Part shown: piece by piece, positions 339 to 9,197 of the stretch
How the letters are laid out: the number at the start of each line of letters is the position of its first letter
How positions within the stretch are numbered: position 1 is the stretch's first letter
Virus record (IMG/VR): IMGVR_UViG_2728369184_000010
Location: 1-10,104 of that record
Strand: one strand, 5' to 3'
Source: a virus
Lineage: Duplodnaviria > Heunggongvirae > Uroviricota > Caudoviricetes
DNA length: 10,104 nt
The notes under the pieces: model-generated
Seen by the model: only the letters and a program-made list of their open reading frames with translations
What the model was told of the DNA's origin: nothing
Database searches by the model: none
Program-made: the position numbers and the translations under genes

Positions 339-455
339 TTAAAAACGATATCCTGCTGAGAACATAAACACCCACGGATCGAGGCGTACGCTATCGTGTT
401 GCTGTGCACCGCCCAGTTTATAATTGGCGGTGGTATCGATATCCATGTACCACAC
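339..455 (-). pseudogene. ompW: Promoterless 3' fragment of ompW (last ~38 codons), displaced by prophage integration
   Basis: Hand translation of the - strand gives VWYMDIDTTANYKLGGAQQHDSVRLDPWVFMFSAGYRF followed by TAA (stop at + 339-341), which matches the OmpW C-terminus as I recall it. There is an in-frame stop just upstream at 465-467 and no start codon, and similarity to OmpW is lost upstream of about 455-465. It is absent from the supplied ORF track because it has no start. Confidence 0.75.
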
Positions 456-465
456 TGGTAGGTTT

Positions 466-663: not shown

Positions 664-767
664 GCCAAAAAAACCGAAATTGACCGCTAATTACTGCCAA
701 TCATCATCGCTCTGATTGAGCGTAAATCATTCAGGTTATTCAGTTCTTCCTTCTGCTCTCGCTGACG

Positions 768-938
768 TCAATAAATCCCATCATTGCGATCAACCTCATC
801 CTTAACCATTGATGCGAGCAGTTCTTCCAGTTTCTGCGCTGACAGCTTTACCTGGTGATCTTCAGCATCTTCCCGGGCTATTGTGGTTCGCGCAGTGGCT
901 GATTTTGCTGACATCACCACAGGGGGCAGACGGACCAT
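768..938 (-). CDS. Small hypothetical protein (56 aa from the internal ATG at 936-938), immediately downstream of the tfa-like gene
   Basis: The ORF-track entry 768-1049 starts at a TTG that lies inside the duplicated tfa-downstream hairpin region. The internal ATG at 936-938 is preceded by GGAGG about 10 nt upstream. The predicted protein is charged and helical (MVRLPPVVMSAKSATARTTIAREDAEDHQVKLSAQKLEELLASMVKDEVDRNDGIY) and I do not recognise it. Confidence 0.3.
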   Translation of the reverse strand: MVRLPPVVMSAKSATARTTIAREDAEDHQVKLSAQKLEELLASMVKDEVDRNDGIY

Positions 939-1000
939 TGAACCAGGGCCTCCGGAACAAATAAGGGCAAAAATAACAACCACTATCGAAAGCTCACAAA

Positions 1001-1172
1001 CTAACCGCAGCACGTTCCTGCATACGACGTGTCTGCGGCATAATCCCAATGATTACTCCCTGACAGGATTTGCAGGCCACTCAATATCAGGTGCAGTTGA
1101 TGTATCAACACGATTCAACAATACCCGATATTTATTCCATGCCTCCAGCAACGATCTTTCTTCCTCCGTTGC
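1001..1172. repeat. Copy 1 of a ~172-bp direct repeat covering the 3' end of tfa plus its downstream hairpin; copy 2 is at 2051-2221
   Basis: Hand alignment of 1001-1172 against 2051-2221 gives roughly 90% identity with one 1-nt indel. The plus-strand shadow ORFs 883-1233 and 2079-2456 share the same peptide ([27 protein letters not shown]). Confidence 0.8.
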
Positions 1173-1322
1173 GATTTCCAGATCTACAGCATCCTGCAGT
1201 GGCGCAATATACTCACTGAATTCCTGGATGTAGAACTGTGTGGTGACGGTCTTCCAGCCATTCGGCTCCTGCTGTATCGAAGCATACCAGGCTATTTCAA
1301 TATCGCTATGCTGCGGCAGCAT
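1053..1322 (-). CDS. tfa: Short tail-fibre-assembly-like protein (89 aa): lambda Tfa C-terminal domain preceded by an unrelated short N-terminus
   Basis: The C-terminal ~50 aa ([51 protein letters not shown]) are near-identical to the lambda Tfa C-terminus as I recall it. The N-terminal ~35 aa have no lambda counterpart. The ATG is at 1320-1322 and the TAA at 1053-1055. Lambda Tfa is about 194 aa, so this is a truncated or chimeric version. Confidence 0.7.
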
Positions 1323-1330
1323 TTAACCCC

Positions 1331-1359
1331 TTGTAATTCATCGCCATAATTGATTTAAT
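1331..1359 (+). promoter_or_regulatory. Candidate sigma-70 promoter for the methyltransferase gene (-35 TTGTAA, 17-nt spacer, -10 TTTAAT)
   Basis: Hexamers read by eye in the 56-bp AT-rich divergent intergenic region between tfa-like (-) and the methyltransferase (+). There is no experimental support, and AT-rich DNA gives many near-matches. Confidence 0.3.
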
Positions 1360-1378
1360 TCACAAATAAAACTATAAC

Positions 1379-2047
1379 ATGGTGAAATTAATGAAAAAAA
1401 ACACAGATGATGGGGCTAAAATTTACACACCACTTACCCTAAAGCTTTATGACTGGTGGGTTTTGGGAGTATCAAATCGGCTTGCATGGGGATGTCCTAC
1501 AAAGGAACACCTTCTTCCACACTTTCTGGAACATTTAGGTAACAACCATCTGGATATTGGTGTTGGAACTGGGTTTTACCTTACTCACGTACCTGAGAGT
1601 AGTCTGATATCTTTAATGGATTTGAACGAAGCTAGCCTGAACGCGGCATCTACAAGGGCTGGGGAATCAAAAATTAAACATAAAATTAGCCATGATGTTT
1701 TTGAACCTTATCCCGCGACGTTACATGGTCAATTTGATTCCATTTCCATGTTTTACCTTCTTCACTGCCTGCCTGGAAATATATCTACAAAAAGCTGTGT
1801 AATACGCAATGCGGCGCAGGCCTTAACTGACGATGGAACTCTATACGGAGCCACAATTCTTGGCGATGGAGTTGTGCACAATAGCTTCGGTCAAAAACTG
1901 ATGCGCATTTACAATCAGAAAGGCATCTTTTCAAACACAAAAGATTCCGAAGAAGGCTTAACACATATACTCTCAGAGCATTTCGAGAATGTTAAAACCA
2001 AGGTTCAAGGTACTGTAGTAATGTTTTCCGCTTCAGGGAAAAAATAG
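1379..2047 (+). CDS. Class I (Rossmann-fold) SAM-dependent methyltransferase, substrate unknown; accessory (moron) gene on the strand opposite to the phage late genes
   Basis: 222-aa ORF with a glycine-rich SAM motif I (HLDIGVGTGFYL), an acidic post-I motif (SLMDLNEAS) and a hydrophobic motif III-like stretch (FDSISMFYLLHCLP). No DPPY/NPPY or PCQ motif typical of DNA methyltransferases. Composition is AT-richer than flanking phage genes (by eye ~40% GC versus over 50%). An alternative start at ATG 1391 (MKKNTDD) has a slightly better upstream GGTG. Confidence 0.75.
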   Translation: MVKLMKKNTDDGAKIYTPLTLKLYDWWVLGVSNRLAWGCPTKEHLLPHFLEHLGNNHLDIGVGTGFYLTHVPESSLISLMDLNEASLNAASTRAGESKIKHKISHDVFEPYPATLHGQFDSISMFYLLHCLPGNISTKSCVIRNAAQALTDDGTLYGATILGDGVVHNSFGQKLMRIYNQKGIFSNTKDSEEGLTHILSEHFENVKTKVQGTVVMFSASGKK

Positions 2048-2050
2048 CAT

Positions 2051-2221
2051 CCAACCGCAGCACGTTCTTGCTTAAGACGTGCTGCGGCATAATCCCAATG
2101 ATTACTCCCTGACAGGGTTCACAGGCCACTCAATATCAGGTGCAGTTGATGTATCAACACGGTTCAGCAACACCCGATACTTTTTCCAGGCTTCCAGCAA
2201 CGAGGTTTCTTCCTCCGTTGC
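2051..2221. repeat. Copy 2 of the ~172-bp tfa 3'-end direct repeat
   Basis: See copy 1 at 1001-1172. This copy begins 4 nt after the methyltransferase stop codon. Confidence 0.8.
2055..2087. terminator. Conserved hairpin downstream of the tfa 3' segments, abutting the methyltransferase stop; possible terminator
   Basis: Perfect 11-bp stem CCGCAGCACGT / ACGTGCTGCGG with an 11-nt loop. The paralogous copy at about 1005-1040 is imperfect (1-nt insertion). There is no U-run directly after the stem on either strand; on the - strand TTTTTT follows after 10 nt. Terminator function is therefore uncertain. Confidence 0.35.
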
Positions 2222-2230
2222 ATATACAGC
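2102..2230 (-). pseudogene. tfa: 3' remnant of a second tfa gene (last ~42 codons, no start codon)
   Basis: Hand translation of the - strand gives [42 protein letters not shown] followed by TAA (stop at + 2102-2104). An in-frame TGA lies immediately upstream and there is no ATG. It matches the lambda Tfa C-terminus. Confidence 0.6.
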
Positions 2231-2240
2231 TCACCTTTTT

Positions 2241-2381
2241 TCACCCACGATTAACCAACAGCCAGACCAGCAGACACGCCACCACCGGCACAGCAAAATC
2301 CATCAGGCTTGCCACATCCCACGCGCGCGGATCAAAACCGCCCCACCACGGCATATTCATTCGCTTGCCATGTCCGAACAT
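2241..2381 (-). CDS. Possible small membrane protein (46 aa), below the ORF-track length cut-off
   Basis: ATG at 2379-2381 and TGA at 2241-2243. The translation MFGHGKRMNMPWWGGFDPRAWDVASLMDFAVPVVACLLVWLLVNRG has a C-terminal hydrophobic stretch compatible with one transmembrane helix. The RBS is weak and the region is GC-rich with open frames on several phases, so this may be spurious. Confidence 0.2.
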   Translation of the reverse strand: MFGHGKRMNMPWWGGFDPRAWDVASLMDFAVPVVACLLVWLLVNRG

Positions 2382-2455
2382 TTCAATCCAGCGATATTAT
2401 GCCTGGGGTGTTCAAGCGCAATGAAGTACGTATTGTATCTTCGCGATTTTTTATA

Positions 2456-2557: not shown

Positions 2558-4387
2558 TCAATAGCGGATTGTCCCTACATCCATTTCTGGCGAATCCACT
2601 AACCAGAAATTATCTGGCTTTACAGCCAGAATGATCCAGGCAGTGTTTGTTGTTGATGGCCAGGAAGGCAGCACATCGTATGCCAGGTTATCGCAAGAAT
2701 CACGATAACCGTACTCATTAAAAAGTGGAGCCATTGCTGCCACAAGATTCACCGCATTCAGCTCATTACCCAGCTTGCGCTCAAAAAGTGCCACACCTGC
2801 CGTTCCTTCCACCCACACGCCACGGCTGTGACCACTATAACCATAATCAGGGTGGTACGGTGTGTAACCCGTGGTTTCCCTCGTACCAAATAAAAAACGC
2901 CCCATATATTTTCGGCACTTAGCCGCTTTCTCAGCATCAATATTGGCAACAAACAATCCGCCCCAGGAAGACTGATCCAGCGCCGCTGCGTTGTCATAGT
3001 GGGTTGAATGAACCCCCTGTCGAAATCGGCCTTCATCTTCCACCCACAGACCTCTGATGATACTCTTTGCCAGCCTGTCAGCCCGCTCACTGAAACCGTC
3101 AAATCCCAGCCGTCCCATCAGTTCAAACAAAAACCAGATATCAACGTTATGCTCCAGTGCGCACCATTCGGCGACGAAAGTTTCATCAAAATTGCCGTCC
3201 ACATAACGCCCCTGCCCCCCTTTATACAGGCCTTCACGCAGGTCGCCTGGTGTGCTCACCAGAAAAGTATCCAGCCAGGCAATGCCTGCCAATAGCTTTT
3301 CTCTGACCCGCGCAGTCTGAGTACCGTCCGGATACTTCTCCAGATAGAAAGCAAGAGCATAATAAACCCATGCCGCATTGCCCAAGCGGTAATAGGTACG
3401 CGGTGACATGGCAGACAGCCTGTTAACAAAAAACTTTACTCCACCGTTTTCATCAACAAGCGCACACAAGCCCGCAACGTATCTTTCTACAGCCTCATGT
3501 CGCTGAACCATCAACGCCAGTGCTGCCAGCGCCTGGTCATACGTGTAACACCGATCTTTCATCACCCTGATCACTTCGGGGTCTGCGTCCTCCGGCATCC
3601 AGTAGCTACGAATGAGCAGTGGAAACTCCAGCGTTGTGATCCACGCATTATCCTCAATCCGAATAAGACGAAACTGTTTTGCTCCCGTCCAGCAACGTCT
3701 GAAATAGAAAGTTCCGTCACTATTCAAATTAGCGTCGCCGTTAAAATACTCTCCGGTTGTATAAGCATACATTTCGACTTTATACTTTTCTGGTTCAGAA
3801 ATATCGCAATATCCGTTAACTGCACCGACATAATTAAAATCGATATTTTCTTTTATTTTTAAAGATATTGATGTATCAACAACCTCGGGTTGTTCCAGTT
3901 TTAACATTGCAGTAGTGCAACGACTCACGATGTCGTCAAAGTTCTCAAAGCGCAAACCGGGAAAACTATCGGCTATTCCCTGCATTTCAGACAGTAACGC
4001 TTCTGCCCTTTTTGTCGCTGATATTGCCACATCTGCACTTCGTCGCGCCTGACTTGTCAAATCTTCAAATCGTTTCACCACATCTGGCTTCAGGTCGCCT
4101 TCGTCGGGGGCAGTCAGAAAATCATTCAGCGTACCTGGTCTGGAACCTTCATAAACGGTAATGGTCCCGGCATGTGAAGGCGGAAAACCTTCAACCAGCA
4201 GGGTGACGCTGTACTGACCATACTCAACATCCATGCTGTAACGTCCAGCTTCATCCGGATTTTCTGAGGCCACCGTGTTCACCACAACCGTTGTGCTGTT
4301 ACGTTTTGCCTTCAGTTGAATAGTGCAGTTCTGTATTGGTTTTCCCGCACCATCTTTCAGCACACCTGAGATTTTTACTGCTGCCAT
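2558..4387 (-). CDS. stf: Side-tail-fibre-like protein: lambda Stf N-terminal tail-attachment domain fused to a divergent ~520-aa C-terminal globular domain (putative receptor-binding or polysaccharide-degrading module)
   Basis: The N-terminal ~90 aa (MAAVKISGVLKDGAGKPIQNCTIQLKAKRNSTTVVVNT...GTITVYEGSRPGTLNDFL) closely match the lambda Stf N-terminus as I recall it. The rest lacks the Ala/Ser/Thr-rich fibre repeats of lambda Stf and is instead rich in aromatic, helix-like segments (TYDQALAALALMV, NAAWVYYALAFYLEKY, WCALEHNVDIWFLFELMGRLG, DNAAALDQSSWGGLF). The position after lom matches lambda stf. The ORF-track start is a GTG at 4393; the ATG at 4385-4387 is preceded by GGGGTGGA and aligns with the lambda start. 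Confidence 0.8.
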   Translation of the reverse strand: MAAVKISGVLKDGAGKPIQNCTIQLKAKRNSTTVVVNTVASENPDEAGRYSMDVEYGQYSVTLLVEGFPPSHAGTITVYEGSRPGTLNDFLTAPDEGDLKPDVVKRFEDLTSQARRSADVAISATKRAEALLSEMQGIADSFPGLRFENFDDIVSRCTTAMLKLEQPEVVDTSISLKIKENIDFNYVGAVNGYCDISEPEKYKVEMYAYTTGEYFNGDANLNSDGTFYFRRCWTGAKQFRLIRIEDNAWITTLEFPLLIRSYWMPEDADPEVIRVMKDRCYTYDQALAALALMVQRHEAVERYVAGLCALVDENGGVKFFVNRLSAMSPRTYYRLGNAAWVYYALAFYLEKYPDGTQTARVREKLLAGIAWLDTFLVSTPGDLREGLYKGGQGRYVDGNFDETFVAEWCALEHNVDIWFLFELMGRLGFDGFSERADRLAKSIIRGLWVEDEGRFRQGVHSTHYDNAAALDQSSWGGLFVANIDAEKAAKCRKYMGRFLFGTRETTGYTPYHPDYGYSGHSRGVWVEGTAGVALFERKLGNELNAVNLVAAMAPLFNEYGYRDSCDNLAYDVLPSWPSTTNTAWIILAVKPDNFWLVDSPEMDVGTIRY

Positions 4388-4397
4388 ATCCACCCCA

Positions 4398-4425
4398 CAA
4401 AAAAGCCCGCCAGAATATGCGGGCT
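4398..4425 (-). terminator. Rho-independent terminator downstream of lom, between lom and the stf-like gene
   Basis: On the - strand: 7-bp GC-rich stem AGCCCGC / GCGGGCT with an 8-nt loop, followed directly by TTTTTT, starting about 16 nt after the lom stop. Confidence 0.55.
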
Positions 4426-4441
4426 GTCATAACACTGCTAA

Positions 4442-5041
4442 TCAGAATTTATAACCGACACCCACGATAAAACCGTCAGTGCGCCAGTCACCACTGCCGG
4501 AGCCTTCATAAGCAATATCAATGGCCACGGATTCGGTCGGGTTAAACTGCACGCCAGCCCCCCACGCCAGAGACGTGTTACTGTGGCGACCATCATCACT
4601 TGCGGTCAGCACATCGTGCGTTTTCCCCTTGTTGTCAGTTACGCGGAGATAATCCCCGGAGAAAGTCGAAACACGGCTGTAAGCCACACCCGCCATCGCA
4701 TATGCGCTGAACCACTCATTCACGCGCACAGATGGCCCCGCCATCATGCTGAACCAGCGGTTACGCACTGAATCTTCATGCCAGCGGGTATCACTGTAAC
4801 GGGTAATCTGGCGATTCTTGTCTCCAGCATAACTGAATGACGTCACCAGCCCCAGCGTGTCCGTAAATTCATAACGGTATTTCACGTTAATGCCCTTCAG
4901 GTCATCGTTGCCGGGCATATCAGTATGGGACTGAATATACCCGGAGCTTAGTGTGGACTGATGCTCTGCTGCACTCGCTGGCGTACCAGCGGCAACCAGC
5001 CAGACTACTGCGGACAGAATAACAGCACATAATTTACGCAT
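4442..5041 (-). CDS. lom: Lom/Ail/PagC-family outer-membrane beta-barrel protein
   Basis: 199-aa ORF with a signal peptide ([24 protein letters not shown]). The C-terminus [23 protein letters not shown] is identical to lambda Lom as I recall it. It sits immediately downstream of J as in lambda. The - strand has GAGAGG upstream of the ATG. Confidence 0.9.
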
Positions 5042-5065
5042 AATTACCTCTCGCTTTTCTGCAAT

Positions 5066-5089
5066 AAAAAAGGCGCCATTTCTGGCGCC
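5066..5089 (-). terminator. Rho-independent terminator between J and lom
   Basis: On the - strand: 7-bp stem GGCGCCA / TGGCGCC with a 4-nt loop, followed by TTTTTT. It lies in the 67-bp J-lom spacer. Confidence 0.6.
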
Positions 5090-5108
5090 CGTATCTGGGT
5101 TATAAAAT

Positions 5109-8100
5109 TCAGCTAATCGTGATGCCTGCAGTGGCTTTCTTCATCACCACAACCAGCAAATCGCTGATACTTGCTGTGGGATACCAACCATTTACCCACC
5201 ATGCTGATACAGAAAACTCCAGTGTCATTACGCCACTGCCTGCAGGCATATCAATAACACCCGTGTATATCAGCGTATTATCCAGAGCCGTTCGGTTATA
5301 AATTTCAGCCCCGTTTTTCTTCACTATCAGGCGGCATGACGAATAAGTATCGCTATTCTCCCGCTCATGTCTGGCACCGCTGAAAGCCACCGCAGGAATA
5401 ACAATTTGCCGGTCAAACGGCTGATCGTCATAAACCCTGACGGTAATGGTCCCTGATGGCCACCGCTCCGGTGCACGGGAGTCCCGGGGGAAAGCTTTGC
5501 CCACTGTTTTAACGAGATCGCCTTCAATCTGGTTCGCGGACAGTTTTCCCAGAACCCGACAGTTCTCGTTAATCGTGACGTTGTTGAGCGTCCCTGAATT
5601 TGCATTCACATTACCGCTGATATCCGCATTTTTAGCGGTCAGCTTTCCGTCCGGTGTCAGGGAAAATGCCGGCGGATTTCCACCGCTGGTAATGGTGGGA
5701 GCCGTCAGGCGTTTCAGGAACACGTCGTTCATGAATATCTGGTTGCCCTGCGCCACAAACATCGGCGTTTCATTCCCGTTTGCCGGGTCAATAAACGCGA
5801 TACGATTGGCGGCAACCAGAAACTGGCTCAGCTTGCCTTCCTCCGTGTCCTCCATGCTGAGGCCAATACCCGCGACATAATGTTTGCCGTCTTTGGTCTG
5901 CTCAATTTTGACGCCCCACATAGCATTCCATTTATCGTTAGCGTCCTTCCACTCTTTCGAAAACTCATCCAGTCTGCTGGCGTTATCCTCCGTCAGGTCG
6001 ACTTTTTTCAGCAGCTCTTTACCGAGATGGGATTCGGTTATCTTGCCTTTGAAAAAATCCAGGTAACCTTCCGCATCATCGCTCGCCCGACCGACGGCCT
6101 CCACGAATGCCGATTTGCCAACGGTGTTCACACTGCGGATATAAAAGTAATAATCATGGCCCGGTTTGATATTGATACTGGCGGCTATCCAGTACAGCCC
6201 CGTGCCAAGGTAGCGGGCTGTGGTTTCAACCTGCCTGATATCGGTAATCCGCGTTTCCGAGAACCAGAACTCAAACTGTACCGTCGGATCATAAACCGCA
6301 AGATGCGGCGTGGCAGTTATCTGAAAATAGCCCGGCGTCAGCTCAATCCGCGACGGCGCTGCCGGGGCGGCAATCCGGAACGATACCGATGCCGGATCGC
6401 CCTGCTGCCCCCAGGCATTTGCCGCCCGGACTGTCAGCCTGTAGTTTCCCAGCGCCAGTTGCGTGAAGCGGTATGTGGTTTCCGTCGTCCGGGCCGTGCT
6501 GACCAGCCGCTCACTGCCGTCATCCGCTGCCACGGTCAGGCGAAGCATAAAGCTCACACCCTTCACCACCTTCGGCGTATCCCAGCGCGCCAGCACCTGG
6601 TATTCCCCGCTGTCTGCGGTGACTTCGGCAGTCAGATGCTGCACTGCTGGCGGTGTGACCCCGTTCACCGTGCCGCTCTGGTCGCCGTCAAAGTGCGCCC
6701 CGTTATCCACGATGGCCTCTTTTTCCGGTACATGCTGCACGGCGGTGATGGCATACGTGCCGTTGTCGTTCTCACGGATACTCACGCAGCGGAACAGGCG
6801 CTGGCGCAGCGTCGGCAGCTTCAGCCCCCACACGCTGTATTCAGCAACGCCGTCAGGAACACGGCTCACTTTTACCTTCACGCCGTCGGTGACGGACTGG
6901 ATCTCCACGCTGACCGGATTGCCACTTCCGTCAACCAGGCTTATCAGCGTGGTACCGGAGGATGGCAGCGTGATTTCACGGTCGAGCGTCAGCGTCCGGG
7001 TCTGGCTGTTCACCGCCAGCACACGACCACCGGTGCTGATACCGGCATAGTCATCATCACAGATTTCAATGACATCGCCCGGCACATGGCGAAGCCCTTC
7101 GGCACCCACGCTGAAGTCCACGGTCTGCGTTTCCAGCAGTTCCGTTTTAATCAGCCACAGCCCGGCTCTGTGTGCCTGCCCCCGACTGGTACAGCCAAAA
7201 GCATCCATCTTCGTGACGTTACGACCGTAACGGGCAATGGCCTGCGTGTCCTCCACAAGCTCTGTCGCCGTCTCCCAGCCATTATTCGGGTCAATCCAGT
7301 TCACCTCAACGGCATTATGGCGGTCCTTCAGGGCGCTGAAGCTGTAGCGGAACGGCGCGCCATCATCCGGCATCACCACATTACTGCGGTTATAGGTCCA
7401 CACCTTATCCGACCGTCGGTCCTGCACGAACGTCAGCGTCTGCCCGTTCCATACCGGCATACAGCGCATCGCCGAGCAGAAATCACTGAGCACATCCCAC
7501 GCCTTGCGCTGCGTGGTCATGTACGCATTACAGGTGATGCGCGGCTCCGTGCCACCAAAGCCATCCGGCACCGACTGGTCGCAATTCTGGCCGATGACAT
7601 ACAGCGCCCATTTATCCACATCCGCCGCACCAAGACGTTTCCCCATGCCGTAGCGCGGATGGGTCAGCATATCCCACAGACACCAGGCCATGTTGTTGCT
7701 GTATGCTGGCTTAAACGTTCCGTCCCAGATACCGCTGTATTGCCGCGTCTGCGGGTTATAGTTCGACGGCACCTGCAGAATACGCCCGCGAAGATGATAA
7801 TTACGGCTCACCTGCTGACTGCCGAACTGTTCCGACTCCACCTGCACGCCGACCAGTGCCGTGTTCGGGTAGCACTGTTTCACATCGATGATTTCGGTGT
7901 ATGACGACCAGAGCGTTTTGTTCTGCAGCTGGTCTGTGGTGCTGTCCGGCGTCATCCTGCGCATCCGGATATTAAACGGGCGCGGCGGCAGGTTATCCAC
8001 CACTACCGATGCCAGATACTGCGAGGTGGTTTTGCCCTTAATGGTGATGTCTTTTTCCGTCACCCAGCCACCGTTACGTTGTATCTGAACCAGCAGGCGG

Positions 8101-8564: not shown

Positions 8565-9197
8565 TCAGCGACCAATCACCACAACCTGACCACCATCCCC
8601 TTCGTCTGCCGTGCTGATCTCCTGAGAAACCACGCGAGACCCCACGCGCATTTCCCCGTACAGAACAGGCAGAACATTGCCCTGGGCAACCATGTTATCC
8701 AGTGAGGAGAAATAGGTGTTCTGCTTACCGTTATCCGTTGTCTGTGTACGGGGAGTTCTGGCTTTCGGTGCCAGCATCTGCGCCACANNNNNNNNNNNNN
8801 NNNNNNNNNNNGCTGCCCCCCATGCTGCAAGGGTGGCTCCGGCGGTAAAGAATGATCCGGCAATGGCGGCAGCCCCCAGGACAATCTGGAATACGCCACC
8901 TGACTTGGCCCCGGCGACTCTGGGAACAATATGAATCACAGCGCCATCAGGCAGAGTCTCATGTAACTGCGCCGTTAACCCGGACGTGCTGACGTCCCGC
9001 CCGGCAATCCGTACCTGATACCAGCCGTCGCTCAGTTTCTGACGAAACGCCGGGAGCTGTGTGGCCAGTGCCCGGATGGCTTCAGCCCCCGTTTTCACAC
9101 GAAGGTCGATGCGGCGACCAAATCGTTGTAAATCCCCGTAAAGGCAGATGCGCGCCATGCCCGGTGACGCCAGAGGGAGTGTGTGCGTCGCTGCCAT
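8565..9197 (-). CDS. I: Tail assembly protein I; coding sequence interrupted by a 24-N gap
   Basis: MAATHTLPLASPGMARICLYGDLQRFGRRIDLRVKTGAEAIRALATQ... matches lambda gpI. It overlaps the 3' end of K by 103 nt in another frame, as in lambda, and the 60-nt I-J spacer is lambda-like. The N-run falls in the Gly/Ala-rich region. Confidence 0.9.
   Translation of the reverse strand: MAATHTLPLASPGMARICLYGDLQRFGRRIDLRVKTGAEAIRALATQLPAFRQKLSDGWYQVRIAGRDVSTSGLTAQLHETLPDGAVIHIVPRVAGAKSGGVFQIVLGAAAIAGSFFTAGATLAAWGAXXXXXXXXXVAQMLAPKARTPRTQTTDNGKQNTYFSSLDNMVAQGNVLPVLYGEMRVGSRVVSQEISTADEGDGGQVVVIGR
8788..8811. other. Run of 24 N (assembly gap or masked bases) inside gene I
   Basis: Seen directly. Lambda gpI has about 22 residues where this window shows about 9 X, so the N-run probably under-represents the true length. 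Confidence 0.95.

Follow-up and report, generated by a model that had tools for sequence, protein, structure and literature searches.

In the window, as we call the whole stretch of 10,104 nt analysed here, a methyltransferase gene stands between two direct copies of the 3' end of the phage gene tfa. We consider it probable that these repeats are conserved tfa 3' ends with terminator-like hairpins bracketing a ybcY moron, and that they represent an inherited scar of recombination, not a device. The window represents the cargo-rich right end of a lambdoid prophage integrated at ompW of E. coli, and the arrangement is ordinary phage mosaicism. The anatomy of the repeats, the joints of the inserted cassette, the relatives representing each state of the arrangement and its prevalence were all observed directly.

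Two direct copies of the tfa 3' end

Local alignment paired positions 1003-1184 with 2053-2232 (162/180 identical, 90%, two 1-nt gaps). The alignment score was 260, far above the scores obtained with 300 shuffles (19.1 ± 2.2, maximum 28). The direct similarity of about 90% that had been noted earlier from the sequence is thus real, and the possibility that the two segments are not similar was refuted. A repeat search found direct repeats at 1033-1172/2082-2221 (91%) and 1003-1031/2053-2081 (90%), with a spacing of 1049-1050 nt. Both tfa 3' ends are on the minus strand, and the methyltransferase gene lies between them, as originally described, on the plus strand.

Copy 1 (1003-1218, minus strand) consists of Tfa codons 141-194, the stop codon and a hairpin with its 3' flank. 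The part aligning with copy 2 is 1003-1184, but the tfa-derived DNA reaches to approximately 1218, past the stretch it has in common with the cut-down copy 2. Over 996-1229 copy 1 is 84% identical to the 3' end of lambda tfa. Copy 2 (2053-2221, minus strand) contains Tfa codons 156-194 (the coding remnant, 2102-2221), the stop codon and the hairpin. The earlier estimate of about 40 tfa codons per copy was correct for copy 2 (39 codons plus stop) but not for copy 1, which has 54. Similarly, copy 2 was rightly placed close behind the methyltransferase gene, the distance between the stop codon of the latter (TAG, 2045-2047) and position 2053 being, however, 5 nt (CATCC) and not about 4.

The ORF at 1053-1322 matches positions 75-130 of the 131-position Pfam profile Caudo_TAP (PF02413) with 88.3 bits, and 2102-2221 matches positions 95-130 with 63.5 bits, both above the gathering cut-off of 22.1. 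Together with the hairpins found in both copies, these matches bear out the view that each copy is a tfa 3' end followed by a hairpin. Judged by profile coverage and start codon, neither copy is a complete Tfa, which has about 190 aa and two domains, the N-terminal one specific for the fibre and the C-terminal one conserved. Copy 2 has no start codon and is preceded by an in-frame stop just upstream. From their sequences, copy 2 appears to be a non-coding relic, and both copies are fragments predicted to be non-functional as members of the Tfa family.

The hairpins of both copies sit directly after the tfa stop codon. On the tfa strand GUUAGUUUGU comes after the terminator-like hairpin of copy 1 (1005-1038, minus strand), which is identical to a second hairpin in the b region of lambda (lambda 24162-24195). 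The hairpin of copy 2 (2055-2087, minus strand) lies 7 nt past the ybcY stop codon, and the cassette ends at its outer base, which is the right joint. Read on the tfa strand, the segments 985-1060 (76 nt) and 2030-2110 (81 nt) fold with -29.6 kcal/mol (z -3.9) and -35.5 kcal/mol (z -5.3), respectively. The hairpin past the ybcY stop lacks a U-run when read on the ybcY strand; it is predicted that in the lysogen it probably shields ybcY from convergent late transcription. We also considered a small RNA at the repeats. The Rfam candidate sRNA IS009 (RF02111) scored 112.5 bits at 1096-1299 and 71.6 bits at 2145-2243, both below the gathering score of 117, and there was a weak CssrB match on the second hairpin. 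The IS009 model appears to describe the tfaX/tfa sequence itself; both models seem to have been built on this same sequence, and are uninformative here.

A chimeric reading frame at the left joint

The 89-aa ORF running into copy 1 (1053-1322, minus strand, phrog_2341, tfaX-like) had been interpreted as a partial tfa. It is really a chimera, in which 35 residues unrelated to Tfa (orfX aa 1-35) are joined in frame to Tfa aa 141-194. In tblastn searches aa 27-89 alone matched the tfa genes of lambda, P2, P1 and Mu, and the N-terminus matched the 79-aa orfX of Citrobacter and phrog_3893. The orfX gene is a genuine gene of the phage b region, divergent from dinI in HK225. For annotation this means that ORFs of the tfaX type (phrog_2341) should be taken as orfX-tfa chimeras and not as tail fibre chaperones, and that the 39-codon tfa piece should be labelled as a relic.

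The ybcY cassette and its product

The cassette (1219-2052, plus strand) has a G+C content of 41%, as compared to 48-56% in its surroundings, and comprises the 5' end of orfX (minus strand), a divergent promoter spacer and ybcY. The ybcY gene (1379-2047, plus strand) matches the Pfam families Methyltransf_12, 23, 25 and 11 as well as phrog_2132; the homologue in phage PhiR26_1 is named YbcY. The phrog_2132 alignment begins at YbcY residue 5, and the true start is likely the ATG at 1391, giving a protein of 218 aa. YbcY is predicted to be a class I SAM-dependent methyltransferase: its model (pLDDT 90) has a Rossmann-type fold, and the glycine-rich SAM motif DIGVGTG is invariant across 23 homologues. 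The solved folds closest to the model are those of PE N-methyltransferase, phosphoethanolamine methyltransferase and JHAMT, i.e. small-molecule or lipid methyltransferases, and at the sequence level characterised enzymes match marginally (E about 1e-3). A role as DNA methyltransferase or in anti-restriction was considered and rejected, the listed sequence and fold matches being all to small-molecule, lipid or natural-product methyltransferases.

Homologues of YbcY with 55-69% identity are encoded in chromosomal, non-phage contexts in Salmonella, Enterobacter and Yersinia, which argues for ybcY being captured cargo. This part of the original prediction is also in line with the low G+C content and with the promoter-like site (TTAACC-16-CATAAT, 1323-1350) in the spacer between orfX/tfaX and ybcY (1323-1378). 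The corresponding ybcY/tfaX spacer of K-12 binds RpoD holoenzyme (TTGATT-17-TATAAC) and also H-NS (PMC3946193), and promoter mapping at ybcY/tfaX and tfaX/appY has been reported in the literature. From the sequence it can be predicted that ybcY is probably transcribed in the lysogen from its own sigma-70 promoter. Among the listed matches of a full-text search for ybcY/tfaX (20 of 29) there was no dedicated study of ybcY or of the duplication.

The joints and the origin of the repeat

At the left joint (approximately 1214-1222) orfX codon 35 is joined in frame to Tfa codon 141. At the right joint the hairpin base, with ACCGCA at 2054-2059, abuts the ybcY 3' end. Both joints are non-homologous, with a few bases in common at most, and these microhomologies are so short that they could be coincidental. 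The original prediction was that the methyltransferase gene had been captured by recombination between tfa 3' ends, leaving a partial tfa on each side. A single homologous event of this kind would agree with the two 90% identical direct tfa 3' ends flanking the gene, and the C-terminal sequence of tfa, conserved in lambda, P2, P1 and Mu-like phages, could support such an exchange, but the positions of the joints contradict it, and there are two further observations which make it very unlikely. One is phage Ayreon, which carries a tfa remnant, the hairpin, the 3' 41 nt of ybcY and orfX aa 1-51, ybcY being deleted between 1353 and 2011. It possesses the right joint and a longer stretch of orfX than the window, but no second (downstream) tfa copy, thus the duplication was probably a later and separate event.

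The other observation concerns the upstream copy, which is a complete tfa of 187-194 aa in PhiR26_1, in K-12 and in 37 of 85 further loci carrying the exact 30-mer of the left junction (80 IMG/VR viral contigs and 5 GTDB genome records). In the rest of the 85 loci it is a remnant (29), absent (12) or not assessable (7). A partial tfa on each side is therefore not the product of the capture, and the truncation of the upstream copy, of which 39 codons are left upstream of ybcY in this window, where a full-length tfa is missing, must have been a separate later event. The left-junction 30-mer occurs as an exact match in E. coli, E. albertii and 106 IMG/VR contigs.

Another conceivable origin is a tandem duplication that affected the tfa 3' region within one phage, with the cassette entering between the two copies afterwards; a direct repeat of about 216 nt would be compatible with it. 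Such a history is nevertheless highly improbable: the left joint fuses tfa to another gene, orfX, and is not a duplication boundary, Ayreon lacks the second copy, and the two copies differ by 10-14%, whereas the intervening cassette shows 97.8-99.8% identity from one E. coli instance to another. This difference fits two parental tfa alleles. Origin from different parents is, however, not the only reading of the divergence, because copy 1 of K-12 carries a patch that looks like exchange with another tfa allele, and later exchanges of this patchy kind could also account for the 10% divergence.

On a functional reading, the tfa ends could serve as portable homology arms, with RecA or Red recombination letting the cassette enter or leave phages with a lambda-type tfa, and the repeat being maintained in this way. 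The near-clonal cassette (97.8-99.8%) lies in flanks that vary between 87 and 99% from genome to genome, with different fibre modules upstream and different cargo downstream (ompT/hydrolase, appY, DUF4376), in prophages located at different sites (potB, argU, ompW), and 3,844 of 5,426 complete genomes of E. coli (about 70%) carry it, with up to four copies in one genome. The same pattern would, however, be produced by single crossovers in either flank swapping whole arms; the left joint is identical everywhere, which indicates that the unit spread from one origin; and the cassette was found in lambdoid phages only, not in the P2, Mu and P1 types, which have the same tfa C-terminus. We regard this explanation as unlikely, and equally doubtful is its concrete form, which builds on the conservation of the tfa C-terminal segment and hairpin in lambdoid phages: a double crossover, one in each arm, would insert ybcY into a phage with a lambda-type tfa, and arm-by-arm recombination would delete it cleanly, restoring an intact tfa. 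If true, ybcY would be recombination-mobilised cargo. This would account both for a nearly clonal gene in such varied surroundings and for its occurrence in about 70% of E. coli genomes, and would offer cargo a simple way of spreading from one temperate phage to another.

Layers at the right end of the prophage

The prophage/chromosome boundary is marked by a 3' fragment of ompW (339-464, minus strand), which adjoins yciE (1-279). The layer closest to the prophage end is the 3' remnant of a DUF4376 or 'stf2'-type tail-fibre accessory gene (687-956, minus strand, PGAP); SerU-LTIIb stf2 matches 604-940 at 75.7%. On the other side of the cassette, copy 2 is followed by the 3' remnant of a small membrane-protein gene (2222-2431, minus strand, phrog_1443), delimited by junctions at 2221/2222 and 2431/2432. 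The membrane protein has 97 aa in phage ev243, and PGAP calls the version in the window frameshifted. The ev243 genome matches window 1098-2432 at 97.6% and diverges after this point. The current side tail fibre gene (2558-4393, minus strand) encodes 611 aa with phage_tail_N and a non-Pfam C-terminal domain, matches phrog_4128 and phrog_13714 over its full length, and has no intact tfa downstream.

There is a second direct repeat pair: 603-691, near the prophage end and just downstream of the DUF4376 remnant, is 75% identical to 2432-2520, just downstream of the current stf. Homology breaks at the latter copy in many genomes. The idea that this repeat is a bidirectional terminator was dropped, as the two copies fold no better than shuffles (z -0.5 and -1.5).

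Duplicated tfa is typical of invertible host-range segments, and related phages have invertases near orfX, which could suggest a programmed switch, in which an invertible or alternative chaperone segment would behave like those of Gin, Cin or Pin, or else a transposable element that duplicated its target. There is practically no chance of this being correct. The repeats are direct, not inverted, and between the prophage end and stf (465-2557) there is no invertase or transposase ORF and no invertase annotation. Terminal inverted repeats are absent from the cassette, and the duplicated stretch of approximately 170-216 nt is far longer than a target-site duplication, which also speaks against an insertion sequence or MITE.

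A possible history

The history that we favour would involve two illegitimate joins and a subsequent module exchange. As a first step, a methyltransferase gene of an enterobacterial chromosome would have entered the spacer between orfX and dinI in the b region of a phage. The corresponding state is seen in Citrobacter: loci of C. freundii match only window 1236-2059 (91.8%), and the discrete cassette found in Citrobacter has an intact 79-aa orfX and no tfa flanks, although the Citrobacter arrangement could be derived, not ancestral. In the second step the ybcY 3' end may have been joined illegitimately, with about 6 nt (ACCGCA) in common, to the hairpin base following a full-length tfa, as in Ayreon. 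The third step would be another illegitimate join, by which orfX codon 35 came in frame with Tfa codon 141 of a second phage genome that had a different tfa allele; the right arm would thereby have been swapped and the direct repeat formed, the state of PhiR26_1 and of the K-12 prophage DLP12. Finally, the upstream stf-tfa host-range module may have been replaced by tfa-independent fibres, reducing copy 2 to 39 codons (junction 2221/2222, as in ev243), and a further replacement would have left the junction at 2432. We infer the order of the events and the origin from two parents; in particular, the proposed order of the second and third steps comes from the sequence of Ayreon, a single phage which is itself rearranged.

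On this reading, the window is a worked example of how the end of a lambdoid prophage grows: bacterial cargo is added at the tfa terminator through illegitimate joins, successive swaps of host-range modules leave layered, 5'-truncated relics, and the conserved tfa 3' end remains an exchange zone.

Comparison with known systems

The tfaD-ybcY-tfaX arrangement is common and already known. It is annotated in the cryptic DLP12 prophage of the K-12 reference and occurs in most E. coli genomes (both junctions are present in about 60% of the 5,426), thus the observation in itself is of small weight. The window matches the DLP12-type module in having a ybcY orthologue, the orfX35/Tfa141 left joint and the right joint at the hairpin base, and the same architecture is found at 97-99.8% identity in DLP12 and in viable phages. 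In DLP12 (tfaD - ybcY - tfaX - appY - ompT) the cassette is 99.0% identical over window 1236-2059, and the left joint (the orfX-tfa chimera, tfaX), the right joint at the hairpin and the orientation are the same. The two loci differ in the upstream copy, which is 187 aa long in K-12 (tfaD, full length at the C-terminal part) and 39 codons in the window, in ybcY, a pseudogene in K-12 but intact in the window, and in the downstream copy: tfaX of K-12 has a premature stop and its 3' end is broken towards appY, whereas the window retains the complete tfa 3' end with the hairpin.

Phages PhiR26_1, ev243 (Nesevirus) and 2G7b have the order stf - tfa - ybcY (reverse) - chimeric tfa', with a cassette 99.8% identical, and ev243 also has the 2221/2222 truncation junction. 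In contrast to the window, their chimera breaks after ...NRVDTS into a hydrolase-ompT-int module, giving a 101-aa ORF, and PhiR26_1 keeps a full 194-aa tfa upstream. The tfa (orf-194) - ea47 region of lambda resembles the window in the tfa 3' end with its hairpin (84% identical to copy 1), in having a reverse-oriented cargo gene, ea47, after tfa, and in carrying beyond ea47 a second direct hairpin identical to the copy 1 hairpin plus 22 nt of flank. Lambda differs by lacking ybcY, orfX and a tfa coding remnant before the second hairpin, i.e. there the hairpin alone is duplicated. Lambda ea47 raised the idea that cargo genes at this position always lie between two tfa hairpins in direct orientation. 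This is contradicted by a locus of O157:H7, where a yciGFE-catalase block lies between tfa and a single hairpin.

Morons, in the sense of Hendrix and Juhala, are autonomous genes of low G+C content with their own promoter, located between the late genes and the attachment site and variably present; comparable cargo loci follow the tail fibre genes of lambdoid prophages. The ybcY gene, of low G+C content, present in PhiR26_1 and ev243 and absent from lambda, has both the deviant base composition and the variable presence among related phages that are expected of a moron. It differs from the classical case in having no terminator of its own, the cassette ending 5-12 nt past the stop codon and abutting the tfa hairpin, and in that the cassette carries an orfX fragment fused to tfa.

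Organization of the prophage end

The window is 100% identical to the chromosome of E. coli MS 21-1. It contains the right end of a lambdoid prophage that is integrated at ompW and adjoins trp-yciGFE. The order on the minus strand is L, K, I, J, lom, the side tail fibre gene stf (611 aa), a frameshifted small gene, a tfa remnant (copy 2), the methyltransferase gene on the opposite strand, another tfa remnant (copy 1), a DUF4376 remnant and an ompW 3' fragment, which marks the end of the prophage. The side tail fibre ORF (2558-4393, minus strand) is intact, and no intact tfa follows it. Residues 5-130 of the fibre are the phage_tail_N domain; residues 138-611, for which Pfam and NCBIfam gave no match, belong to the PHROG tail-fibre families phrog_13714 and phrog_4128. 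For the identical genome, the PGAP annotation covers no more than the N-terminal 139 codons, which it calls a partial pseudogene, and leaves about 1.4 kb unannotated. Within the gene for tail assembly protein I (8565-9197, minus strand), 24 consecutive bases (8788-8811) are given as N, being masked or unknown. The weak Rfam Trp_leader match at 4397-4495 on the minus strand (26.9 bits, E 0.02, gathering score 41), which spans the stf start, the lom-stf spacer and the lom 3' end, is probably due to chance.

The direct repeat

Local alignment of 1003-1184 (copy 1) with 2053-2232 (copy 2) gave 162 identities in 180 positions (90%) with two single-base gaps, and a score of 260 vs 19.1 +/- 2.2 (maximum 28) in 300 shuffles, a similarity beyond chance. 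The pair was also recovered, in direct orientation, by the repeat search (pieces D1 and D5). Read on the minus strand, each copy is the 3' end of a tail fibre assembly (tfa) gene: the ORF of copy 1 (1053-1322, minus strand) matches positions 75-130 of the 131 of Pfam Caudo_TAP, the tfa stretch of copy 2 (2102-2221, minus strand) positions 95-130. In each copy the tfa stop is followed by a strong minus-strand hairpin, located at 1005-1038 in copy 1 (985-1060 folds on the tfa strand with z -3.9) and at 2055-2087 in copy 2 (2030-2110, z -5.3). The methyltransferase stop codon occupies 2045-2047, and copy 2 starts 5 nt further on (4 nt in the original prediction). Alignment, tfa identity, hairpins and this spacing show that the locus had been described correctly as a methyltransferase gene between two similar, directly oriented tfa 3' ends with their hairpins.

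The hairpin looks like the terminator of tfa, i.e. of the late operon. A U-rich tail lies 3' of the copy 1 hairpin, and on the ybcY strand the hairpin has no U-run. An invertible segment was rejected, the repeats being direct and 465-2557 showing neither an ORF nor an annotation for an invertase. An sRNA locus was likewise rejected: the matches to Rfam IS009 (RF02111, a candidate E. coli sRNA) at 1096-1299 (112.5 bits) and 2145-2243 (71.6 bits), both on the minus strand, are below the gathering score of 117. The IS009 family itself seems to have been modelled on the tfaX region.

The cargo gene

The methyltransferase is YbcY. Homologues with 55-69% identity are found in Salmonella, Enterobacter and Yersinia, where their neighbourhoods are ordinary chromosomal ones and not phage, which identifies ybcY as bacterial cargo. 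The protein is modelled with confidence (pLDDT 90) and has the Rossmann fold of class I methyltransferases; the solved structures closest to it in fold are methyltransferases acting on small molecules or lipids, with no DNA methyltransferase among the listed matches.

A sigma-70-like promoter is predicted upstream of ybcY in the 1323-1378 spacer. In K-12 the ybcY/tfaX spacer is bound by RpoD holoenzyme in both directions and by H-NS, and its promoter is TTGATT-17-TATAAC (PMC3946193). ATG 1379, where ybcY starts in the annotation, overlaps with the -10 element (TATAAC) of this promoter. This, together with the 218 aa length of the homologues and the alignment of phrog_2132 from residue 5, suggests that ATG 1391 is likelier to be the true start.

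Joints and order of events

The cassette (1219-2052, comprising the 5' end of the phage gene orfX, the spacer and ybcY) has 41% G+C vs 48-56% in its surroundings. Terminal inverted repeats were looked for at its ends and none was found, hence a transposable element was rejected. Loci of Citrobacter freundii match the window only over 1236-2059 (91.8%), and their flanks are not tfa; there ybcY is placed between dinI and an intact orfX of 79 aa (phrog_3893), the ORF that diverges from it. Relatives of orfX occur in the b region of HK225, where orfX is divergent from dinI, and of HK140, mEp390 and Klebsiella and Erwinia phages. The 89-aa 'tfa' ORF of the window is a chimera of orfX aa 1-35 in frame with Tfa aa 141-194, and has its own PHROGs family (phrog_2341). 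At this left joint (about 1214-1222) the parents have only a few bases in common. The right joint is ACCGCA (2054-2059), which coincides exactly with the hairpin base; beyond the hairpin, native tfa (lambda, copy 1) continues into TTAGTT and copy 2 into the 3' end of ybcY.

In phage Ayreon there is a single tfa remnant with the hairpin, 41 nt from the 3' end of ybcY, and orfX aa 1-51; the deletion in ybcY runs between positions corresponding to 1353 and 2011, and the downstream tfa copy is absent. As Ayreon has the right joint, yet more of orfX than the window, it is not derivable from the two-copy form, which argues that the right joint is older than the orfX-tfa fusion through which the repeat would have arisen. 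The original prediction, capture of the gene by recombination between tfa 3' ends, thus holds for the captured cargo, given the non-phage homologues, but neither for homologous recombination, since the joints share few bases, nor for a single step.

Among E. coli instances the cassette is 97.8-99.8% identical, whereas the two tfa copies diverge from each other by 10-14%. Judged from these sequences, this fits two different parental tfa alleles, which would have been joined by unequal, illegitimate exchange between two phage genomes; intragenomic duplication fits less well. Later patchy exchange does occur, as seen in a copy-2-like tract in K-12 copy 1. The near-clonal cassette amid diverse flanks could also mean that the two tfa arms mobilise it through homologous recombination, which we consider unlikely.

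Later changes at the prophage end

We surveyed 85 further loci with the exact left-junction 30-mer (80 IMG/VR contigs and five GTDB records). Upstream of ybcY, a full tfa of 187-194 aa is present in PhiR26_1, K-12 and 37 of the 85; this copy is reduced to a remnant in 29, absent in 12 and not assessable in seven. Phage ev243 has the 2221/2222 cut in common with the window; its stf-tfa has been replaced by two small genes and a tail protein that does not depend on tfa. The window parts from ev243 at 2432, where a different 611-aa fibre module (phrog_4128, phrog_13714) begins with repeat D2b. Copy 1 retains its whole 3' end in the window and in 59 of the 85 loci; in ev243/PhiR26_1, K-12 and GYB01 it breaks off at three other points, and other cargo (hydrolase-ompT, appY) comes next. 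With these truncations, replacements and broken ends, the prophage end reads as a stack of remnants, presumably from successive arm exchanges.

Of the two copies of the D2 repeat (direct, 89 nt, 75% identical), the one at 2432-2520 lies shortly after the current stf, and the one at 603-691, close to the prophage end, shortly after the DUF4376 remnant; the repeat folds no better than shuffled sequences. In many E. coli genomes homology to the window stops exactly at 2432. The SerU-LTIIb phage has a D2-like stretch 3' of stf2, by the tRNA-Ser att site.

Comparison with known loci

The cassette is present in 3,844 of 5,426 complete E. coli genomes, in up to four copies per genome; the left- and right-joint probes matched in 3,442 and 3,119 of the 5,426, respectively. 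The left-joint 30-mer has exact matches in 106 IMG/VR contigs and, among GTDB species representatives, only in E. coli, E. albertii and two metagenome-assembled genomes labelled Bacillus and Planococcaceae, which we take to be contaminated bins. Isolated phages with the tfa-ybcY-tfa' unit are PhiR26_1, PhiR29/30/49/68, ev243, 2G7b, Turner, Kati and 204576.

Phage lambda has two direct copies of the tfa hairpin, at lambda 22573-22606 (after tfa) and 24162-24195 (between ea47 and ea31), i.e. 3674-3707 and 5263-5296 of the extracted locus, so the reverse-oriented ea47 is bracketed too. The second is identical to the copy-1 hairpin, with 22 nt of common flank (window 981-1039), and no tfa coding remnant precedes it.

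E. coli O157:H7 strain 2149 carries yciG-, yciF- and yciE-like genes together with a manganese catalase gene as one block (locus 3576-6980), with a full-length tfa on one side and the ybcY hairpin on the other. The block is oriented to the tail fibre genes in the way that the chromosomal yciGFE is beside the prophage of the window. It may be host DNA acquired by aberrant excision of an ompW-site prophage.

The K-12 cryptic prophage DLP12, annotated as tfaD - ybcY (pseudogene) - tfaX - appY - ompT, is 97% identical to window 1076-2221. The locus is a tfaD-ybcY-tfaX module of the DLP12 type, a moron situated in the cargo zone that follows the tail fibre genes.
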